Part shown: positions 2,638 through 13,427 of the stretch, in pieces
Layout: the number at the start of each line of letters is the position of its first letter
Position numbering within the stretch: the first letter of the stretch is position 1
Source: Candidatus Bipolaricaulia bacterium
GTDB taxonomy: Bacteria; Bipolaricaulota; Bipolaricaulia; JBHIAT01
Assembly (NCBI GenBank): GCA_046758705.1
Contig: JBHIAT010000098.1
Coordinates: 1-13,449, forward strand
Reading direction: 5' to 3'
DNA length: 13,449 bases
Notes under the pieces: generated by a model
The model's input: only the letters and a program-made list of their open reading frames with translations
What the model was told of the DNA's origin: nothing
Databases searched by the model: none
Made by a program: the position numbers and the translations under genes

Positions 2638-2667
2638 ATTATCAAATACTGGATTCGTATTCGTCAA
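2638..2667 (-). promoter_or_regulatory. Putative sigma70 promoter of uvrC
   Basis: TTGACG (2667..2662), an 18-nt spacer, then GATAAT (2643..2638). Confidence 0.55.
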
Positions 2668-2688
2668 CCGTCCCGGTTCCGGTATAAT
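2661..2688 (+). promoter_or_regulatory. Putative promoter of the nadM-mgtE-trmB-like operon
   Basis: Perfect TATAAT at 2683-2688 with a weak -35 (TCGTCA, 2661-2666). The GGAGGT RBS at 2712-2717 lies downstream. Confidence 0.55.
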
Positions 2689-2725
2689 ATAGCGTGAGTG
2701 CGAATTGGCTCGGAGGTGGAAGACG

Positions 2726-3253
2726 TTGCAGGTGAATGTAGTACGAGGTTTTTACGTTGGCCGGTTTCAGCCCTATCACAACGGCCACCAAGCGATGATT
2801 GCCGAGATTGCTAAGGAAGTCGATGAGCTGATCATCGCCGTCGGGAGCGCCCAGCAGAGCCACGAACTCAACAACCCGTTCACGGCGGGTGAGCGGGTCA
2901 TGATGATCAGCCGAGCCCTGACCGAGCTCGATCTCGACATCGTGACGTACGTGCTCCCGTTCGAAGACATCGAGCGCAACGCCGTCTGGGTGGCCAACAT
3001 TCACGCATTGGCCCCGCCGTTCCATGCGATCTATTCGAACAACCCATTAGTGGTTCGGTTGTTCAAGGAGGCCGGAATCGAGGTACGCAAGCTCCCGCTG
3101 CTCAACCGACAGGAGTACTCCGGCACCGAGATCCGCCGCCGGATCGTGAACGACGAGCCGTGGGAGCATCTGATGCCTGACGCCGTCTGCGGGGTCATCA
3201 AGGAGATCGATGGGGTGGGACGGCTGAAAGAGCTGGCCAAACTCGACTATTGA
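2726..3253 (+). CDS. nadM: Nicotinamide-nucleotide adenylyltransferase, stand-alone archaeal NadM type
   Basis: [10 protein letters not shown] (HxGH), GSAQ.SH...[15 protein letters not shown] and SGTEIR motifs. About 175 aa with no Nudix or kinase domain. TTG 2726 lies 8 nt after GGAGGT. Confidence 0.93.
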
Positions 3254-3281: not shown

Positions 3282-4643
3282 ATGGCCGAAGGGATCAGAC
3301 TGGAAGATGAGGTCGAGCGGATCCGGCTTGAGGTCAAGGTCGGAGATCTCCGATCTCTACGCCGCTACTTTAATGAGAAGCACCCGGCGGAGATCGCCCA
3401 CCTGCTCTCCTTCCTCCGTGAGGAGCATCAGGAGCGCATCTTCTCGAACATCCTCGACGACGAGACGATCGCCGAGTTGGCCGGGTTTATCGACGAGTAT
3501 CGCTACCTGGTCCTGTTGTTCAAGCGGATGCGCGTCAAGCGGCTCGTCCGTATCCTGGAGCTGATGCCGTCCGATGATCGGGTCGATCTGCTTGACGAGT
3601 TTAAAGCCCGGCGGGTGAACCGTCTCCTCGACCTGCTCAGCCAGGAAGATGCCGAGGAGACACGCCAGCTCCTGAGTTACCCAGACGACGTCGCTGGCGG
3701 GATTATGAGCGCCGAGTTCGTCACGGCCGACGAGTTGGAGACGGCCGAGGATGCTCTGGAACGGGTGCGCTGTCTCAAGGGACAGGTGGAGACGCTTTAC
3801 AATATCTATGTGATCACCGAAGACGGTCGGTTGATCGGCGTCGTCTCACTCGCGGAGGTGCTCGTTGCCGATTCCAGCACCACCATCGGTGAGATCATGA
3901 ACCCGGATGTGATCCAGGTGAACGCCTCCGACGATCAGGAACTGGTCGCCGACTTGGTCACCAACTATGACTTGTCGGCGATCCCGGTCGTCGATGATGC
4001 GGGGCGGATTGCGGGGATCGTGACCGTCGACGATGTGATCGACGTGATCCGGGACGAAGCGACTGAGGATACTTACCGGATGGCCGGCATCACCGAGCCC
4101 GACGTCGAACCTCGGGAGATCTTCGATATCGGTGCGCGCGCTCGCCATCGGCTGCCCTGGCTGTTTGTGACGCTGAGCGGTGGGGTCTTAGCTGGGACCG
4201 TCCTCAACCTGTTCGAGGACGTGCTTCAGGTGGCGATCGGGCTCGCCTATTTCGTCCCATTGGTGATGGGAATGGGCGGGAACGTCGGCACACAGGCCTC
4301 GGCTCTGGTGATCCGGGGGCTCGCACTTGGCCGGCTCGATCAGGGCCGGATCACCCGGTTCATTCTAAATCAGGCACGAGTGGGGGCGACCTTGGGGGCG
4401 GTCTTCGGGGCGATCGTGGCTGCCATGGCGACTTTGTGGCACGGGAATTCAACCATCGGCGGAGTGGTCGGCGGAGCGATGTTCGTGGATCTTATCTGGT
4501 CGGCCACCATCGGCAGCTTGCTCCCAATCCTGTTCGACAAGCTGGGCATGGATCCGGCGACCGCCTCGGGACCAATCATCACCACCATGAACGACAGCAT
4601 CGCCCTGTTGATCTACTTCGGCCTGGCAGCCGCCTTTACGTAA
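3282..4643 (+). CDS. mgtE: Magnesium transporter MgtE
   Basis: N-domain (HPAEIA, MPSDDRVDLL), YPDDVAGGIM, a CBS pair, the plug helix (EATED), RLPWL, GMGGNVGTQ, and DPATASGPIITTMND with the conserved TM5 Asp. SD AAGGA. Confidence 0.97.
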   Translation: MAEGIRLEDEVERIRLEVKVGDLRSLRRYFNEKHPAEIAHLLSFLREEHQERIFSNILDDETIAELAGFIDEYRYLVLLFKRMRVKRLVRILELMPSDDRVDLLDEFKARRVNRLLDLLSQEDAEETRQLLSYPDDVAGGIMSAEFVTADELETAEDALERVRCLKGQVETLYNIYVITEDGRLIGVVSLAEVLVADSSTTIGEIMNPDVIQVNASDDQELVADLVTNYDLSAIPVVDDAGRIAGIVTVDDVIDVIRDEATEDTYRMAGITEPDVEPREIFDIGARARHRLPWLFVTLSGGVLAGTVLNLFEDVLQVAIGLAYFVPLVMGMGGNVGTQASALVIRGLALGRLDQGRITRFILNQARVGATLGAVFGAIVAAMATLWHGNSTIGGVVGGAMFVDLIWSATIGSLLPILFDKLGMDPATASGPIITTMNDSIALLIYFGLAAAFT

Positions 4644-4660
4644 GCGAGCGTTCGGTTCAA

Positions 4661-6016
4661 ATGCCCCACCTGATCCTGCAGTATCGAGACGATCACGATT
4701 TTGATGTGCATTCACTCCTTGAGCTTCAGCTTCCGGTTCGCATCCGAACCGATTCCGTTCAGATTGTTTACAGATCCACCTTCCCGTCATATCGTCCGGG
4801 TGAGGGATCACTGGGGCTGGTTGAGATCGAACTTCAGGAGTGCGGGGCCACACGGAGATTCCTGCTCAATCTGGTTTCACAGCCTAATCGCCTGTTGCTC
4901 AAGCTCGATCTGCCCGATCAGGTTGACAAAACGTCCGGGGTGAAGGCTGCGGTGGCCCGGTTCGGAGAACTGCTGGTGCGCGAGTTCCCCGGTCTGTCTA
5001 TCGGTAACACCAACGTCAGAACCACATACGATACCGGGGATGGTCCGGAGATGGAGGCCATCGAGCTCGACCTGCTTCATGAGACCGAGATCCCGGTGGA
5101 TTGGGATCAACGGTGCGAAAATCCCCGGCCGCCGGTCGTCGTCGTCGGCTTCGGTCGCGGAGATTTTCTGATTCACCTGGCAAACCAGACGAAGCCCCAA
5201 GGTCCGATTGTCGGCTTTGAGTTCTCGCGAAGCTCGATGACCCGGGCCAAGCGCCGCGTGATCGCCGCAAGTCTGTTGGGGCAGATTCAGCTGGTCCATC
5301 TGCCCGCTGAGCTCGGGATCGGAGAACTGTTCCGCCCCGAGGGCATCGCTGCGGTCTACATCAACTTTCCCGGGCCTTGGCCCAAGGCCCGCCATGCCGA
5401 TCGCCGACTCATCCGGGCCGGTTTCATTGATCTGTTGGCCGAACAGCTCGAACCGGCCGGCCGGATCTATATCGCGACCGACGATCCGGCCTACGCTGTG
5501 GAGATCGAAGTGCTGTTTCGTGAGTGGAAAACGTTCGTACCGGTGCGAGACGAAACCGCTTACCACGGCTACACGCCGGAGCAAATCACCAAGTACGGGA
5601 AACGCTGGGCCAGACGGGGCAGGAAGATTCACCACTTTATTTATCAGAAAGTGGCTCAACCCGTCCCCCGACCTCAGGATCGATTGCTCCATCCCGGTCG
5701 GCCGGACGCAATCCGGCTTCCTCTGACAGACTCAAAGTTCAACACAAAACGGTCATCTCAGGTGGGTCGATCCCTGCGGGATGATTCAGTGTTCCTGAAG
5801 ATCCTGGCGGCATTCCAGGGGGACGGGTTTGCACTGCTCAAAACCCGGGTGGTCGATATACGGTTACGGTTTGGGTTTCACCAGACGGTCTATTGGAAGG
5901 TGGGGCCGGACGAGATCACCCTCTATCCCACCGGTCGCCCGATTCCCACGGTCGGGCTTCATCGGGCTCCGATGCTGCTCGGTGAACTGTTCGGCGACAA
6001 CCTTACCTCGCCCTGA
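4661..6016 (+). CDS. trmB: TrmB-like (tRNA m7G46 methyltransferase fold) protein, 451 aa, with N- and C-terminal extensions and a degenerate active site
   Basis: GFGRGDFL, GFE, INFPGPWPKARHADRRL, YIATDD..Y and TKY..RW identify the family. ATG 4661 lies 17 nt after the mgtE stop; the upstream GTG 4436 extension overlaps mgtE. Catalytic activity is doubtful (see findings). Confidence 0.8.
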   Translation: MPHLILQYRDDHDFDVHSLLELQLPVRIRTDSVQIVYRSTFPSYRPGEGSLGLVEIELQECGATRRFLLNLVSQPNRLLLKLDLPDQVDKTSGVKAAVARFGELLVREFPGLSIGNTNVRTTYDTGDGPEMEAIELDLLHETEIPVDWDQRCENPRPPVVVVGFGRGDFLIHLANQTKPQGPIVGFEFSRSSMTRAKRRVIAASLLGQIQLVHLPAELGIGELFRPEGIAAVYINFPGPWPKARHADRRLIRAGFIDLLAEQLEPAGRIYIATDDPAYAVEIEVLFREWKTFVPVRDETAYHGYTPEQITKYGKRWARRGRKIHHFIYQKVAQPVPRPQDRLLHPGRPDAIRLPLTDSKFNTKRSSQVGRSLRDDSVFLKILAAFQGDGFALLKTRVVDIRLRFGFHQTVYWKVGPDEITLYPTGRPIPTVGLHRAPMLLGELFGDNLTSP

Positions 6017-6024
6017 AGATCGCT

Positions 6025-6552
6025 TCAGAGTCTCTCCTGATAAAGCTTCTGGCAGTGCTTGATAACGGCTTTGGCCGCTTCCGCGTCTTCCCAGCCCAAG
6101 ACCTTGACCGGCTTGCCTTCGAGCACTTTATACGTCTCAAAAAGATAGGCGATTTCGGTCAAAGTATGTTGTGGCACGTCGTCTAGATTGTGATATTCTG
6201 TGTAGCGGGAATCTCCAACTGGCACGGCCAAAATCTTATCATCTTTCTTATAGCTGTCCAGCATGTGAAGAAGCCCGATGGGCTGCGCGACCATAATGCA
6301 GCCTGGAAACGTGGGATTCGTCACCAACACCATGACGTCGAGTGGATCGCCGTCTTCGTCGTAAGTACGCGGGATAAAGCCGTAGTCGCCCGGATAGTGC
6401 ACGGCGGAATACAGCACACGATCCAGCACCAGCGCTTTCTTCTCCACATCGTACTCGTATTTGTTTTCAGTGCCCTTGGGGTTCTCGATGACCGCGTAAA
6501 TAATCTCGGGCGGCTTCGGCCCGGTCTCTAAGTCACGCCAGTAATCGATCAT
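6025..6552 (-). CDS. ppa: Soluble family I inorganic pyrophosphatase
   Basis: E.PKG..NKYE, LDRVL, YPGDYGFIP, DGDPLDV, DDKILAVP and F.TYK.LE motifs. ATG 6552 follows an AAAGGT SD and lies downstream of a clear promoter. Confidence 0.97.
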   Translation of the reverse strand: MIDYWRDLETGPKPPEIIYAVIENPKGTENKYEYDVEKKALVLDRVLYSAVHYPGDYGFIPRTYDEDGDPLDVMVLVTNPTFPGCIMVAQPIGLLHMLDSYKKDDKILAVPVGDSRYTEYHNLDDVPQHTLTEIAYLFETYKVLEGKPVKVLGWEDAEAAKAVIKHCQKLYQERL

Positions 6553-10039: not shown

Positions 10040-11233
10040 CTAACGAGACACTTTGAAGATCGCTGTCGCTTCACCCCCGGGCCCGACGGAAACTGCCACA
10101 CCATTCTGGATCTGGATTACGGTCTGACCCTTTGCCACCTGGCCGTTTTCGCCGAACGCTACGGTCCCGTAGAAAGACTCGTAGGAAATGTTGGCCAGTG
10201 CGTCACGAACCGCGTTGCGGTTCAGCGATCCGGCGGCCTCGATCGCCTTTTTATAGGTCAGGATCTCAATCGTGCCGTTGGCGTTGTGATATTCCGGCGT
10301 GTAGTCGAAGCGCATTTCGAACATCCGGGTGTAGTCCGCCGCGCTGCCGAAGACGCCGCCGCTTGTGGATTGCGTAGGCACCCAGGGCGCGACCCCGAAC
10401 ACCCCTTCAGCGACCTGGCCCAATGCCAGAAAGTCCGGATTGGAGACTCCCACGGTGAAGACCATGTCTTTATCCAGTCCTAAGCTCCTGGCCTGCTGGA
10501 CGAAGCCAAGCAACTCGACCAGGTGATTGGCCCCCATGATCACATCGGGATTAACACTTTTGAGCTTGGCGATTAGCGAACCGAACTCCGTTTGACCGTC
10601 GGCGTATTTCTCATCGGCGATGATCCTGACCCCGAGTTCGTTTGCCCACTTGCGCGTCCCGACGGCCACGTCGGTGCTGAAAGCGTCATCGGCGTAAATC
10701 AAGGCTATGGTCCGGACCTGGGCCTCTTCCCTGAACAGCCGGATGGCATCTTTGAGATAATTTTGGCCGGCGGGCAACGTGCCAAATACATATTTGAACC
10801 CGCGATTGAAGATGTTGGTCGATGCGCCACCGCCTTCGACCATCGGCACCCTGAACTTCTCCGCAATCGCGCTCGTGGGAATGACCAACCCGCTGGAGTA
10901 TGGTCCGAGCAGGAAGTCAACATTCTGTTCGGTGATGAGTTGTTCATAAAGACGAACGGCCAAATCGGCGCTGCTTTGATCGTCGAATTGAACCAACTCG
11001 ATTCGATAGGCCGTCCCGCCGACGTTGACCCCGCCCAGTGCGTTGAGGATATCCACACCCAAAGCGCGGCCATCGATGTAAAGTGCCGCCACCCGTGCCA
11101 GCCTGCCCGTCTCGGAGATCGTCCCGCCCAGGCGAATGACAGGTTGAGCCTGTCCGACATCCGCCCACGGGCTCATTCCGACCACCAAGAACAACAACAC
11201 CCCTACCGTCAGAATCCAGCGCATCTGAATCAT
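10040..11233 (-). CDS. HAAT-family (LivK-like) amino acid ABC transporter substrate-binding protein
   Basis: Signal peptide without lipobox, then IRLGGTISETG, N..GGV, DDQSS, LLGPYSS and F..NGQ motifs. SD AAGGAGG. It heads the livHMGF cluster; the ligand is unknown. Confidence 0.92.
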   Translation of the reverse strand: MIQMRWILTVGVLLFLVVGMSPWADVGQAQPVIRLGGTISETGRLARVAALYIDGRALGVDILNALGGVNVGGTAYRIELVQFDDQSSADLAVRLYEQLITEQNVDFLLGPYSSGLVIPTSAIAEKFRVPMVEGGGASTNIFNRGFKYVFGTLPAGQNYLKDAIRLFREEAQVRTIALIYADDAFSTDVAVGTRKWANELGVRIIADEKYADGQTEFGSLIAKLKSVNPDVIMGANHLVELLGFVQQARSLGLDKDMVFTVGVSNPDFLALGQVAEGVFGVAPWVPTQSTSGGVFGSAADYTRMFEMRFDYTPEYHNANGTIEILTYKKAIEAAGSLNRNAVRDALANISYESFYGTVAFGENGQVAKGQTVIQIQNGVAVSVGPGGEATAIFKVSR

Positions 11234-11252
11234 CGGACCCTCCTTCTTAGGA

Positions 11253-11362
11253 CAGATTTGGTTTTGGCTATATTAAACTCCTTTGAGTTATATCTTGTCA
11301 ATACCTGATGAAAAACAGGAGAAGAACTGGCATGGGAGCGCAAATGTGGTTTTGGCCTTATT
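11253..11362. repeat. Pair of imperfect 22-bp direct repeats, candidate operators
   Basis: CAGATTTGGTTTTGGCTATATT (11253-11274) and CAAATGTGGTTTTGGCCTTATT (11341-11362) are identical at 18 of 22 positions. Confidence 0.6.
11272..11301 (-). promoter_or_regulatory. sigma70 promoter of the liv-type operon
   Basis: TTGACA (11301..11296), an 18-nt spacer, then TTTAAT (11277..11272). Confidence 0.65.
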
Positions 11363-13427
11363 GCAGGAACCAGAACTCGGCCGGGCGCAACGGGGAGCTC
11401 AACGCGTTGTGCATGGTCGCATTCCCCACCGAGGGATGGTAGGCCATGGCAAACGAGGGTTCCACCGTGTAAATCACGGGCAGGTGTTCGACCACCAATC
11501 GCTGGAACTCGTCGTAAAGCGCCCGGCGCACGTTGAGGTCGAGGGTCGAAACCGCTTGCTGGAACAACGTATCCACCTGTTGTTCCCAAGCTTCGGGTAC
11601 CGAGCGCAGACGCCACAGGCGCAGCGCACCGCCCAGACGCCACATGTTCACGCCGCCGTGGGGATCAATCCCCCCGGTCAACCCCAGCACGGCTCCCTGA
11701 TAGGCACCGTTGAATACTGTTTGGATCAAGGTGTTAAACTCCATGAGCTTGATCGACACCTCGATACCGAGTTGGCCCAACGCTGCCTGCAATAACTGTA
11801 CAGTCCGCACCCGCAGAGGATTGTTCTGATTGGTAATCAGCTCAAAATGCAATGGCTGCCCCGAGGCATCCTCGCGCAGACCATCGCCGTTACGGTCGAG
11901 GTAGCCCGCGCCGTCGAGCAACGCCGCGGCTCGTTGGGGGTCATGGTCGTAAACGATCAGGCCCTGTGCGTGAAATGGCGAGCCCGGGCATACCGGGCCA
12001 TCCAATACGACACCAACCCTGTGTAACGCCTCTTCGATGAGTCGTGGGCGGTCCAGCGCGTGCGCCACGGCCTTGCGGAATGCCAGGTCTCGAAACACTG
12101 CCCTGAGAGCAGGATCCGGCGTGTCTTGGTTGAACACGATAAAGTTCACCCCGAAGGTGGGCCCGCCGATCGATAATGCAAAGCGCTCAGAGGTGGCTAA
12201 CCGCGGGAGGTCCTCGGTGCGGGGGAAGAAAAGCTGGGTTTTGGACGAGTCGAAATCGGCCAGTGCTTGCTGGGGCTCGTCCACGAAGCGCACGTGTAAC
12301 TCATCCAGATAAGGAAGCACCGTCCCCTGGGTGTCCTGCTTCCAGTAATAGGGGTTGCGCTCTAACACCAGTTCCCTGTGCTCATACACCCTCACACGGA
12401 ACGGTCCCAAGCCGGTGAGTTGATCCAAGGACACGTTTTGAGACCAGGTCTGAGCGAAGGTGTCCTCACGCACGCCGACCGCGTCGAAGTTGTCCGCTTG
12501 GGCCTGGTCCCGGACCTGGTACAGCTCCCGGCGCAGGTTAACGATGGCCAGGCCCAACAGGCTCAGCCGGTACAGCTCGTCATCAGTCAACGCCTGCGCT
12601 TGCTCGCCCTTGGGCAGATTGGCTTCGACCGTGCCCAACGTGGTCTCCATGGAACCGACCACCTCCGCGATGCGAGCGACGTCTTGGGCATCGAGGGCCT
12701 GGGCCAGCTCAGTCAACCCGGTCTCAAGGGCCTGATAGCGATCCTCGCCGACATACACCCGTGCCCGGTCACGGAAGATACTGGTTACGATCACTTTGGC
12801 CTTGCCCAACGCTTGTTTAGCGCCCGGTGGGTGTAAGCGCGCCACATGTTGAGACAAGCGATGTTTGGGCAAGATCGGCACAAAGCTCAGCCAGCGCAGA
12901 AACGGTGCGTACACAGCAGGGGTCACAAACCGCACGGTGTTCGCGTCGACCAACTCGACCGTGGGCAACTGGCCGTTGATCAGAAACAACTCGCGCAACG
13001 GGGTGGGCACGTCAGGGTTGAACACCACATCGCGAAACGTGAACAGCACATCCTCCGCGGTGAACGGTTCGTCGTCAGACCAGCGGACCCCGCGCCGCAG
13101 TGTGAAGGTGTATTCGGTGTCCTCGTGGATCTGCCAGCGGGATGCCAGCGCCGGTTCTAGTTCAGCGGTTGTCAGGTTTTGCTCCACCAGCCGACCGTGC
13201 AGCAGATGCAGGACCTGAAGCACGCCGTTGCTCTGTTCCAGCATCGGGTTGAACCCGGTCAAGCCTCGGCCCACCACGGCGAGAGCCAACGTGCCCCCAC
13301 GGCGCCCCAAAGCAACCCGGGTGGTTTCGTCGATGCGATAATACTCAACTGGAGGGGGTGTATCAACCGCGCCCGCTCCCACGATCACAACCAAAAGAAA
13401 CACCAAAGCCCGGTGTCTGCTTGTCAT
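11358..13427 (-). CDS. Family 5 (OppA/DppA/NikA-like) ABC transporter substrate-binding protein with an internal insertion
   Basis: Signal peptide, GGTL, EPALASRW..YTFTLRRGVRWSD..PFTAEDV.FT, ILPKH, GLGPF, LERNPYYW, PYLD, FRKAVAHALDR and R.ALY...Q motifs. 689 aa is long for the family. Confidence 0.93.
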   Translation of the reverse strand: MTSRHRALVFLLVVIVGAGAVDTPPPVEYYRIDETTRVALGRRGGTLALAVVGRGLTGFNPMLEQSNGVLQVLHLLHGRLVEQNLTTAELEPALASRWQIHEDTEYTFTLRRGVRWSDDEPFTAEDVLFTFRDVVFNPDVPTPLRELFLINGQLPTVELVDANTVRFVTPAVYAPFLRWLSFVPILPKHRLSQHVARLHPPGAKQALGKAKVIVTSIFRDRARVYVGEDRYQALETGLTELAQALDAQDVARIAEVVGSMETTLGTVEANLPKGEQAQALTDDELYRLSLLGLAIVNLRRELYQVRDQAQADNFDAVGVREDTFAQTWSQNVSLDQLTGLGPFRVRVYEHRELVLERNPYYWKQDTQGTVLPYLDELHVRFVDEPQQALADFDSSKTQLFFPRTEDLPRLATSERFALSIGGPTFGVNFIVFNQDTPDPALRAVFRDLAFRKAVAHALDRPRLIEEALHRVGVVLDGPVCPGSPFHAQGLIVYDHDPQRAAALLDGAGYLDRNGDGLREDASGQPLHFELITNQNNPLRVRTVQLLQAALGQLGIEVSIKLMEFNTLIQTVFNGAYQGAVLGLTGGIDPHGGVNMWRLGGALRLWRLRSVPEAWEQQVDTLFQQAVSTLDLNVRRALYDEFQRLVVEHLPVIYTVEPSFAMAYHPSVGNATMHNALSSPLRPAEFWFLQ

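Follow-up and report, generated by a model that had tools for sequence, protein, structure and literature searches.

Can a TrmB-like protein in which most acidic residues of the cofactor pocket are replaced still methylate tRNA, or is it a dead member of its family? This question is raised by an open reading frame (ORF) in a stretch of 13,449 nucleotides (hereafter the window) of contig JBHIAT010000098.1, which belongs to a metagenome-assembled genome (MAG) of a Candidatus Bipolaricaulia bacterium (GCA_046758705.1). TrmB methylates N7 of guanine 46 in tRNA (m7G46) with S-adenosylmethionine (SAM). The first-pass annotation of the window had counted three of four SAM-binding or catalytic acids as lost and had proposed a pseudo-methyltransferase. 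The analysis reported here describes the gene as an apparently maintained, three-domain long-form TrmB and as the sole gene of the TrmB family found in the MAG. There is about an even chance that the protein still binds SAM and acts as an m7G46 methyltransferase, possibly a slow one; loss of catalysis is possible.

Translation and a check of the codons gave the intact 451-codon frame, the residues and the codons exactly as they had been claimed, and the strings VVVVGFGRG, HLPA, FPGPW, TKYG, PWPKARH and ATDD were all confirmed in the protein (hereafter the query). Where the query has V161, P215, G238 and G313, canonical TrmB has Glu, Asp, Asp and Glu, respectively. In HMMER alignments to the solved TrmB of B. 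subtilis, S. pneumoniae and E. coli, V161 is located under the Glu of motif I and G238 under the Asp of FPDPW. Residues E69, E94, D121 and D144 of E. coli TrmB correspond to query positions 161, 187, approximately 215 and 238. The alignments agree with the earlier placement of E69, E94 and D144, and D121 is found near 215, the motif III Asp being opposite P215 in the B. subtilis alignment and opposite L214 in that of E. coli. On the tRNA side, H151, R154 and R155 correspond to H245, R248 and R249, and T179 and D180 to T273 and D274, while T217 corresponds to T310 and E220 to G313. The family alignments pair TKYG with TKYE, as had been proposed, whereas the pairwise alignment with the E. coli protein sets TKFE over KRWA. 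The E. coli residue numbers were obtained by adding 29 to the chain index of 3dxx, which agrees with the numbering in PMC10130221.

AlphaFold2 modelled the 451-residue protein with a mean predicted local distance difference test score (pLDDT) of 79.6, and its domains are delimited in Table 1; a separate model of the N-terminal domain reached 77.4. The top Foldseek matches of the core were 3dxy, 2fca, 7nyb and METTL1, with E-values from 8e-14 to 1e-9 and TM-scores (TMt) of 0.66-0.82; E. coli TrmB 3dxy was matched with an E-value of 8e-14 and a TMt of 0.76. The protein matched PF02390 (Methyltransf_4) with 99.1 bits against a gathering cut-off of 24, over residues 157-324 and model positions 3-171 of 173. 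It scored 68.8 bits with NF001080, below the cut-off of 132. With NF010719, a model of long TrmB with 396 positions, residues 65-443 were aligned in one stretch to model positions 45-390, at a score of 59.6 bits against a cut-off of 402. This cut-off was also missed by all eight three-domain relatives tested (110-162 bits).

The C-terminal domain is shared with relatives of 300-355 residues, which make up most of the 150 best matches of an exhaustive search and align with the query up to about residue 440. In an alignment of the query with 29 three-domain relatives (A2), M1, P2, K81, K95 and N118 are invariant. A conserved N-terminal MPH is shared with them and supports the start codon at 4661. 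The same N-domain fold was found by an Atlas structure search in front of other PF02390 clusters, including those of Chloroflexota and Coprothermobacterota, and also as stand-alone hypothetical proteins of about 117-125 residues in Nitrososphaerota and Acidobacteriota clusters. Its sequence was not found in 183 other genomes of the phylum of the window genome, and an Atlas feature search with the N-domain returned no usable match. The best matches of the N-domain in the Protein Data Bank have KA1/TBP-like folds, at noise-level Z only. Assignment to the fold of BamC-N (Z 7.5) or of the METTL16 KA1/VCR domain (Z 7.4) was rejected, these VIA-align values being at the noise level of the tool, and no fold family is claimed.

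With canonical TrmB (E. coli YggH, 3dxx/3dxy; B. subtilis, 2fca/7nyb) the query shares the core fold (E-values from 8e-14 to 1e-12, TMt 0.76-0.82), the GxGxG loop, the motif II Glu, PWxK.RH..RR, the Thr-Asp pair and T-x-Y. In the query, however, the motif I Glu is replaced by Val and both D144 and E220 by Gly; further differences are additional N- and C-terminal domains of about 120 residues each and a score below the TIGR00091 cut-off. The long TrmB of the thermophiles Aquifex aeolicus and Thermus thermophilus likewise has a C-terminal domain after the core, which is said to aid stability and fidelity in thermophilic TrmB (PMC6320965); by description, these enzymes have the conserved Asp residues and lack the N-domain of the query. 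The closest architecture is that of the three-domain long TrmB (NF010719/PRK14121) of a Hippea MAG and of 34 of the 36 other genomes of its phylum. These proteins consist of an N-domain of 101-136 residues, the core and a C-domain of about 90 residues, and have MPH, K81, K95 and N118 as in the query. In contrast to the query, they keep the motif I Glu (30/30) and the Glu of TKYE (28/30), and their N-domains are 14-28% identical to that of the query. The core fold is also shared by human METTL1 and yeast Trm8, in which the contacts to SAM are made by the Glu of motif II, by a Thr and by backbone atoms; unlike the query, they keep D163 and E240, and they need WDR4 or Trm82.

The window genome is a hydrothermal-vent MAG of 3.70 Mb in 319 contigs, 93.86% complete with 4.69% contamination. 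A second canonical trmB had been named as a point to be checked, and none was found in it: the other PF02390 and TIGR00091 matches of the MAG reach at most 27.5 bits and cover the generic SAM-loop region only, the best of them being a UbiE/COQ5-type enzyme. The window genome is alone in its family. In another family of the same class (f5), whose proteins are named Candidatus Bipolaricaulota, Acetothermia or Bipolaricaulaceae, a full-length PF02390 match was found in all ten genomes. The 30 genomes searched from seven other families of this class (completeness 84-96%) yielded no such match; five of these genomes gave weak partial matches. Among the same-class genomes (G001-G040), the distribution of TrmB in the phylum looks patchy.

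Variation at the acidic positions was assessed in an alignment of 184 relatives, composed of 145 of the 149 listed exhaustive-search matches (four shorter than 190 residues were dropped) and 39 of the 40 distinct locus proteins (one of 263 residues was dropped). The locus proteins were picked for lineage or architecture, and unbiased counts are those of the 145 exhaustive-search relatives. Position 161 is Glu in 138 and Asp in seven of these 145; with Glu in all 39 locus proteins, it is non-acidic in none of the 184. The motif I Glu was also present in all 115 pattern-matching proteins among 117 Bipolaricaulaceae-type relatives of one f5 protein. Position 187 is always acidic (127 Glu and 18 Asp in the 145; 165 and 19 in the 184). 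At position 215, 71 Asp and 26 Glu were counted next to 48 other residues, including 12 Ser, six Arg, six Thr, six Asn and five Pro. Position 238 is Asp in 115, Cys in 24, Phe in three, Val in two and Glu in one. At position 313, Glu (100) is accompanied by Ala (20), Gly (7), Gln (6), Arg (4) and others, so that 43 relatives are non-acidic there and one has a gap. Nine of the 145 are non-acidic at both 238 and 313, for example with Cys and Gly. When positions 161, 187, 238 and 313 are taken together, 102 of the 184 relatives have lost no acid, 73 have lost one and nine have lost two. In this comparison, three of the four changes sit at positions that vary among relatives, and only E161V is unique. 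The residue losses on which the pseudo-enzyme proposal was built are real; the step from three of four lost acids to a dead enzyme is weakened by the relatives that vary at 215, 238 and 313.

The Asp of FPDPW does not define the wider TrmB family, position 238 being non-acidic in 29 of the 145 relatives. All ten f5 proteins (L007-L016), nine of which are in the alignment of 184, read FPCPW and keep the motif I Glu, and each is the single PF02390 match of its genome. FPCPW was also found in 104 of the 117 relatives of one f5 protein (P0167-P0283), including proteins named after Thermotoga, Pseudothermotoga, Kosmotoga and Jonquetella; Met, Leu, Pro and Gly are the other residues seen at this site, and one Bipolaricaulaceae MAG protein reads LPGPW. 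Such Cys-type TrmB, known from Bipolaricaulota, Thermotogota and Synergistota, resembles the query in being the sole genomic homologue, in lacking the 'catalytic' Asp and in having a C-terminal domain. It differs in its retained motif I Glu and the lack of an N-domain, and is 32-37% identical to the query. The three-domain relatives were reached through match P0038, which led to the Hippea MAG records and from these to the genomes of the Hippea MAG phylum, where a three-domain TrmB of about 373-412 residues is the single PF02390 match in 35 of 37 genomes (L037-L069). Among the 30 three-domain relatives, FPEPW occurs in 23, FPVPW in four and FPSPW in three, and all 30 have the motif I Glu. None reads FPDPW. 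On these three-domain relatives, the earlier caveat, made for Helicobacter-type TrmB, that the loss of this Asp is not decisive by itself is borne out.

A FastTree phylogeny built from the core shows clustering of the states at 238 with a minimum of 11 changes, which means that the Asp has been replaced repeatedly. At the residue treated as catalytic in the E. coli work, whole clades have Cys, Glu, Val, Ser or another residue. The literature search found no paper mentioning this replacement and the strings FPDPW, FPCPW and FPEPW in no TrmB paper, nor did it find evidence that organisms whose TrmB lacks the Asp contain m7G46. According to the review PMC6313347, no Thermotoga maritima tRNA sequences had been reported.

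Logan contigs from three sequencing runs of one hydrothermal-vent study match the window exactly over positions 4600-6100, or over whatever part of this region they contain. Two divergent contigs came from a fourth run (X4); all four runs are from the same study, and the first three may be the source of the window DNA. Record 10 of X4 (622 nucleotides, 98% identical) has 13 differences, with seven synonymous and six non-synonymous codon changes, and keeps V161, P215 (with a synonymous change from CCC to CCT), G238 and G313. Record 11 (341 nucleotides, 5311-5648) is from a population diverged by about 12% and has 39 differences; its span excludes positions 161 and 215. Among the 24 of these 39 differences that were listed, nine codons are synonymous and 13 non-synonymous. 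The lineage holds at least one more population with this gene. The rough ratio of non-synonymous to synonymous substitution rates (dN/dS) was 0.27 for record 10 on its 13 differences and 0.50 for record 11 on the 24 listed, with bounds of 0.16-1.05 set by the unlisted differences. The dN/dS check suggested in the first-pass annotation was thus carried out in a rough form only, from partial read-derived differences.

At position 238, record 11 has GAA (Glu) where the query has GGG (Gly). As this Glu is also that of most three-domain relatives, it suggests an ancestral FPEPW in the lineage of the query, with Gly238 derived from Glu. Codon parsimony weakly favours this origin (three steps versus four), and GAG to GGG is a single step. 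The earlier count of three changes that each need at least two substitutions assumed Asp at 238 and does not hold at that position if Glu was the starting point. An acid in close relatives, which had been put forward as a possible sign of recent decay or assembly error, was found at position 238 in the diverged population; record 10 shows the same four residues as the query.

The core has 28 columns with a conservation of 80% or more among the 184 relatives; the query matches 26 of them and departs at two, with E161V and N208Q. G185 and E187 are among the residues kept, as are T310 and Y312, in columns that are 94% Thr and 88% Tyr. The PWPK.RH..RR and TD motifs, described as retained from the start, lie in conserved columns that are kept. 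The mean core identity of the query to its relatives is 31.1%, while that of the relatives themselves is 32.2 +/- 2.2%, and 59 of the 184 lie below the query; its overall divergence is normal. This conservation pattern is unlike that of neutral decay. The proposal that a maintained gene diverged over a long time, and did not decay recently, is upheld by the kept columns, by the ordinary identity and by the recurrence of the gene in four samples and in the population diverged by about 12%. Close relatives are scarce: a word-index search returned the query itself and one match of 26%, a further search nothing above 38% identity, the exhaustive search a best match of 37%, and a scan of metagenome contigs no relative.

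In E. coli TrmB, the Ala variants of R26, D144, H151, R154, R155, D180, T217 and E220 are each reported to have less than 10% of multiple-turnover activity (PMC10130221, citing Purta 2005). The D144A variant is slowed more than 150-fold, yet at a high concentration of the enzyme its reaction ends at the wild-type level; R155A binds tRNA more weakly (PMC10130221). D144 had been taken as the proposed catalytic residue, which it is, yet it is not the sole proposal: in the mechanism of the Hori laboratory, from work on A. aeolicus, T179 and D180 (E. coli numbering) hold N1-H and O6 of G46 (PMC10130221; PMC6320965), and this pair is retained as T273 and D274. In A. aeolicus, no activity is left when D133 is exchanged for Ala or Asn, and this residue is termed the catalytic centre (PMC6320965); by residue spacing, it would be the equivalent of E. 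coli D180. The same source gives E47, Y95, R108, T165 and Y167 as AdoMet-binding residues. Spacing alone would place them at E187, F236, R249, T310 and Y312 of the query, all counted as retained. In METTL1, the ribose is held by E107, the adenine by N140 and backbone atoms, and the methionine carboxylate by T238 together with the E240 backbone NH. Catalysis is described there as an SN2 reaction that depends on alignment and not on acid-base chemistry, and the active human enzyme has Asn at the motif III position (PMC13492286).

On these grounds, the query is predicted to bind SAM and tRNA and to retain residual catalysis on N7 of G46. The kept glycine loop, the ribose-binding Glu and the T-x-Y at the methionine end would hold SAM, the Thr-Asp pair is thought to position G46, and the basic residues would bind tRNA. 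Methylation would probably be slower, or the affinity for SAM weaker, given a cofactor pocket unusually poor in acids. An active enzyme is considered the most likely state because the SAM-only residues (G163, G165, G167, E187, T310 and Y312) and the Thr-Asp pair are intact, and because two of the three lost acids seem dispensable in many relatives that have a sole genomic TrmB. Retention of the glycine loop and of E187 argues against lost SAM binding. From the literature, support is provided by the end level reached by D144A and by the assignment of guanine capture to the equivalents of retained residues (PMC10130221; PMC6320965), as well as by the alignment-dependent catalysis described for METTL1 and its contact to SAM through the backbone of E240 (PMC13492286).

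Several observations weigh against an active enzyme. V161 is unique, and a loss of three of the four acids was seen in none of the 184 relatives. Losses of the D144 and E220 type, when combined with E161V, could be far worse than single ones. The TIGR00091 cut-off of 112.65 was not reached (85 bits; 87.6 in a six-frame search), while it was passed by eight of the ten relatives tested, and by five of the seven with Cys or Val at 238. In the FastTree phylogeny, the terminal branch of the query measures 1.35 against a median of 0.57, with no close kin in the set, and no supported position was obtained for the query. The dN/dS values are compatible with some relaxation. The literature search found no assay of any Asp-less relative.

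The foremost alternative, which may be entertained as possible, is a pseudo-methyltransferase that still binds tRNA, with SAM perhaps bound as an allosteric ligand, but transfers no methyl group and serves as a tRNA chaperone or regulator. It would account for the loss, seen in the query alone, of a motif I acid that is otherwise invariant and for the joint loss of three acids, and the residues facing tRNA (H245, R248/R249, T273/D274 and T310) are intact. The E. coli D144A variant has a 2.5-fold higher affinity for tRNA, SAM bound beforehand promotes the binding of tRNA, and TrmB has been suggested as a possible tRNA chaperone like TruB and TrmA (PMC10130221). TruB and TrmA, whose chaperone activity is independent of catalysis, are themselves catalytically active and thus provide a functional analogy. 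A role independent of m7G was reported for catalytically inactive METTL1 (PMC13492286). Furthermore, m7G46 looks dispensable in the class, a full PF02390 match having been found in none of the 30 genomes of the seven other families. Against a dead enzyme, the glycine loop, E187 and T310/Y312, which serve SAM only, are all kept, although a protein that did no more than bind RNA could do without them, and relatives vary freely at two of the three positions where an acid was lost. Moreover, the MAG has no active paralogue as a partner. Known dead methyltransferases such as METTL14 and Trm6 do have an active paralogue as partner. No natural dead TrmB was described in the literature searched. The more specific version, a selectively maintained, dead sole-family TrmB that acts in this vent bacterium as a chaperone or stabiliser of the tRNA elbow region and perhaps senses SAM, is rather unlikely.

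Early decay of a dispensable gene, drifting while its frame is so far intact, is improbable. TrmB was not found in most families searched in the class, the dN/dS of 0.27-0.50 is above the expectation for a housekeeping gene, and the TIGR00091 score would fit as well. Decay is opposed by the open frame of 451 codons, by three domains that all fold with good confidence in the AlphaFold2 model, and by the conserved columns and the normal divergence described above. The frame is also open in the 98%-identical contig and in the part seen of the diverged population, and dN/dS is below 1 where the list of differences is complete.

Even less probable is a changed cofactor or target, in which the enzyme would use another methyl or alkyl donor or be redirected by its N-domain to another RNA or position. 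Three negative charges are gone from the pocket, and the N-domain matches include the KA1-type RNA-binding domain of METTL16, at the noise-level Z of 7.4 only. The N-domain is common to the 29 three-domain relatives that have the motif I acid and so leaves the changes unexplained; there is no positive evidence for another ligand, and the residues for guanine positioning and tRNA binding are those of TrmB. Finally, a sequencing or assembly artefact, for which the 319 contigs and the contamination of the MAG might speak, is very unlikely and close to negligible, because the contigs of three runs are identical and the fourth-run contig of 98% identity keeps all four residues with a synonymous change at P215, in four separate codons, all within one study.

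The features of the window that bear on the gene and on its expression are given in Table 1.

Table 1. Position of the TrmB-like gene, its domains, changed and kept residues, and upstream features in the window
Feature	Position	Strand	Basis
TrmB-like ORF P0001, three-domain long-form homologue	4661..6016	+	451 codons, no stop in translation
N-terminal alpha/beta domain, residues 1-121	4661..5023	+	homology to N-domains of three-domain TrmB; AlphaFold2
Low-confidence linker, residues 122-142	5024..5086	+	pLDDT <50
Class I methyltransferase core, TrmB type, residues 143-330	5087..5650	+	AlphaFold2 pLDDT ~90; Foldseek
C-terminal domain of the long-TrmB kind, residues 331-451	5651..6013	+	alignment of relatives; pLDDT 80-94
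V161 (GTC), motif I acidic position, sole unique change	5141..5143	+	codon read
Kept glycine-rich SAM loop, G163-F-G165-R-G167	5147..5161	+	columns 98-99% Gly in 184 relatives
E187 (GAG), kept motif II acid, ribose hydroxyl contact (E. coli E94, METTL1 E107)	5219..5221	+	
P215 (CCC), motif III position	5303..5305	+	codon read
G238 (GGG), FPDPW Asp position (E. coli D144)	5372..5374	+	codon read
Kept PWPKARHADRR, P239-R249, with equivalents of E. coli H151/R154/R155	5375..5407	+	conserved columns
Kept T273-D274 (E. coli T179/D180), proposed guanine-positioning pair	5477..5482	+	Thr 93%, Asp 99% in 184 relatives
T310-K-Y312-G313, Thr and Tyr kept, Glu (E. coli E220) replaced by Gly (GGG)	5588..5599 (G313 at 5597..5599)	+	
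Promoter-like site, matches 10 of 12	2661..2688	+	ahead of three-gene run
Cytidylyltransferase-like ORF	2705..3253	+	Pfam/NCBIfam
mgtE	3282..4643	+	Pfam/NCBIfam; 17 bases before TrmB-like start

No promoter-like or terminator-like site was found between mgtE and the TrmB-like ORF, and the cytidylyltransferase-like ORF, mgtE and the TrmB-like gene are probably co-transcribed as an operon. The TrmB-like gene and a convergent inorganic pyrophosphatase gene end eight bases apart (6016-6025), with no terminator-like hairpin between them. Elsewhere in the window, the ORFs at 2642-3025 (minus strand, 127 residues) and 11230-11643 (minus strand, 137 residues) had no Pfam or NCBIfam match; the latter overlaps the start region of a 689-residue SBP_bac_5 gene and may not be a gene. 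In the product of that gene (11358-13427, minus strand), a family-5 solute-binding protein, PF00496 is matched in two stretches, which suggests a large insertion or an N-terminal extension.

The protein thus appears as one orphan sequence with one truly unusual residue, within a known family. An active protein would mean that N7-guanine methylation can do without the motif I Glu, the FPDPW Asp and the TKYE Glu all at once. Both this and the clades with Cys, Glu or Val at 238 would favour the view that the reaction is driven by alignment and not by acid-base chemistry. An inactive but maintained protein would put to a natural test the chaperone role, independent of catalysis, that has been proposed for TrmB and would be, should the reading of a dead but maintained protein be true, the first natural tRNA-modification enzyme retained solely for a non-catalytic role. 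For specialists, the clade-wide replacement of the 'catalytic' Asp may be of more interest than the query protein itself.

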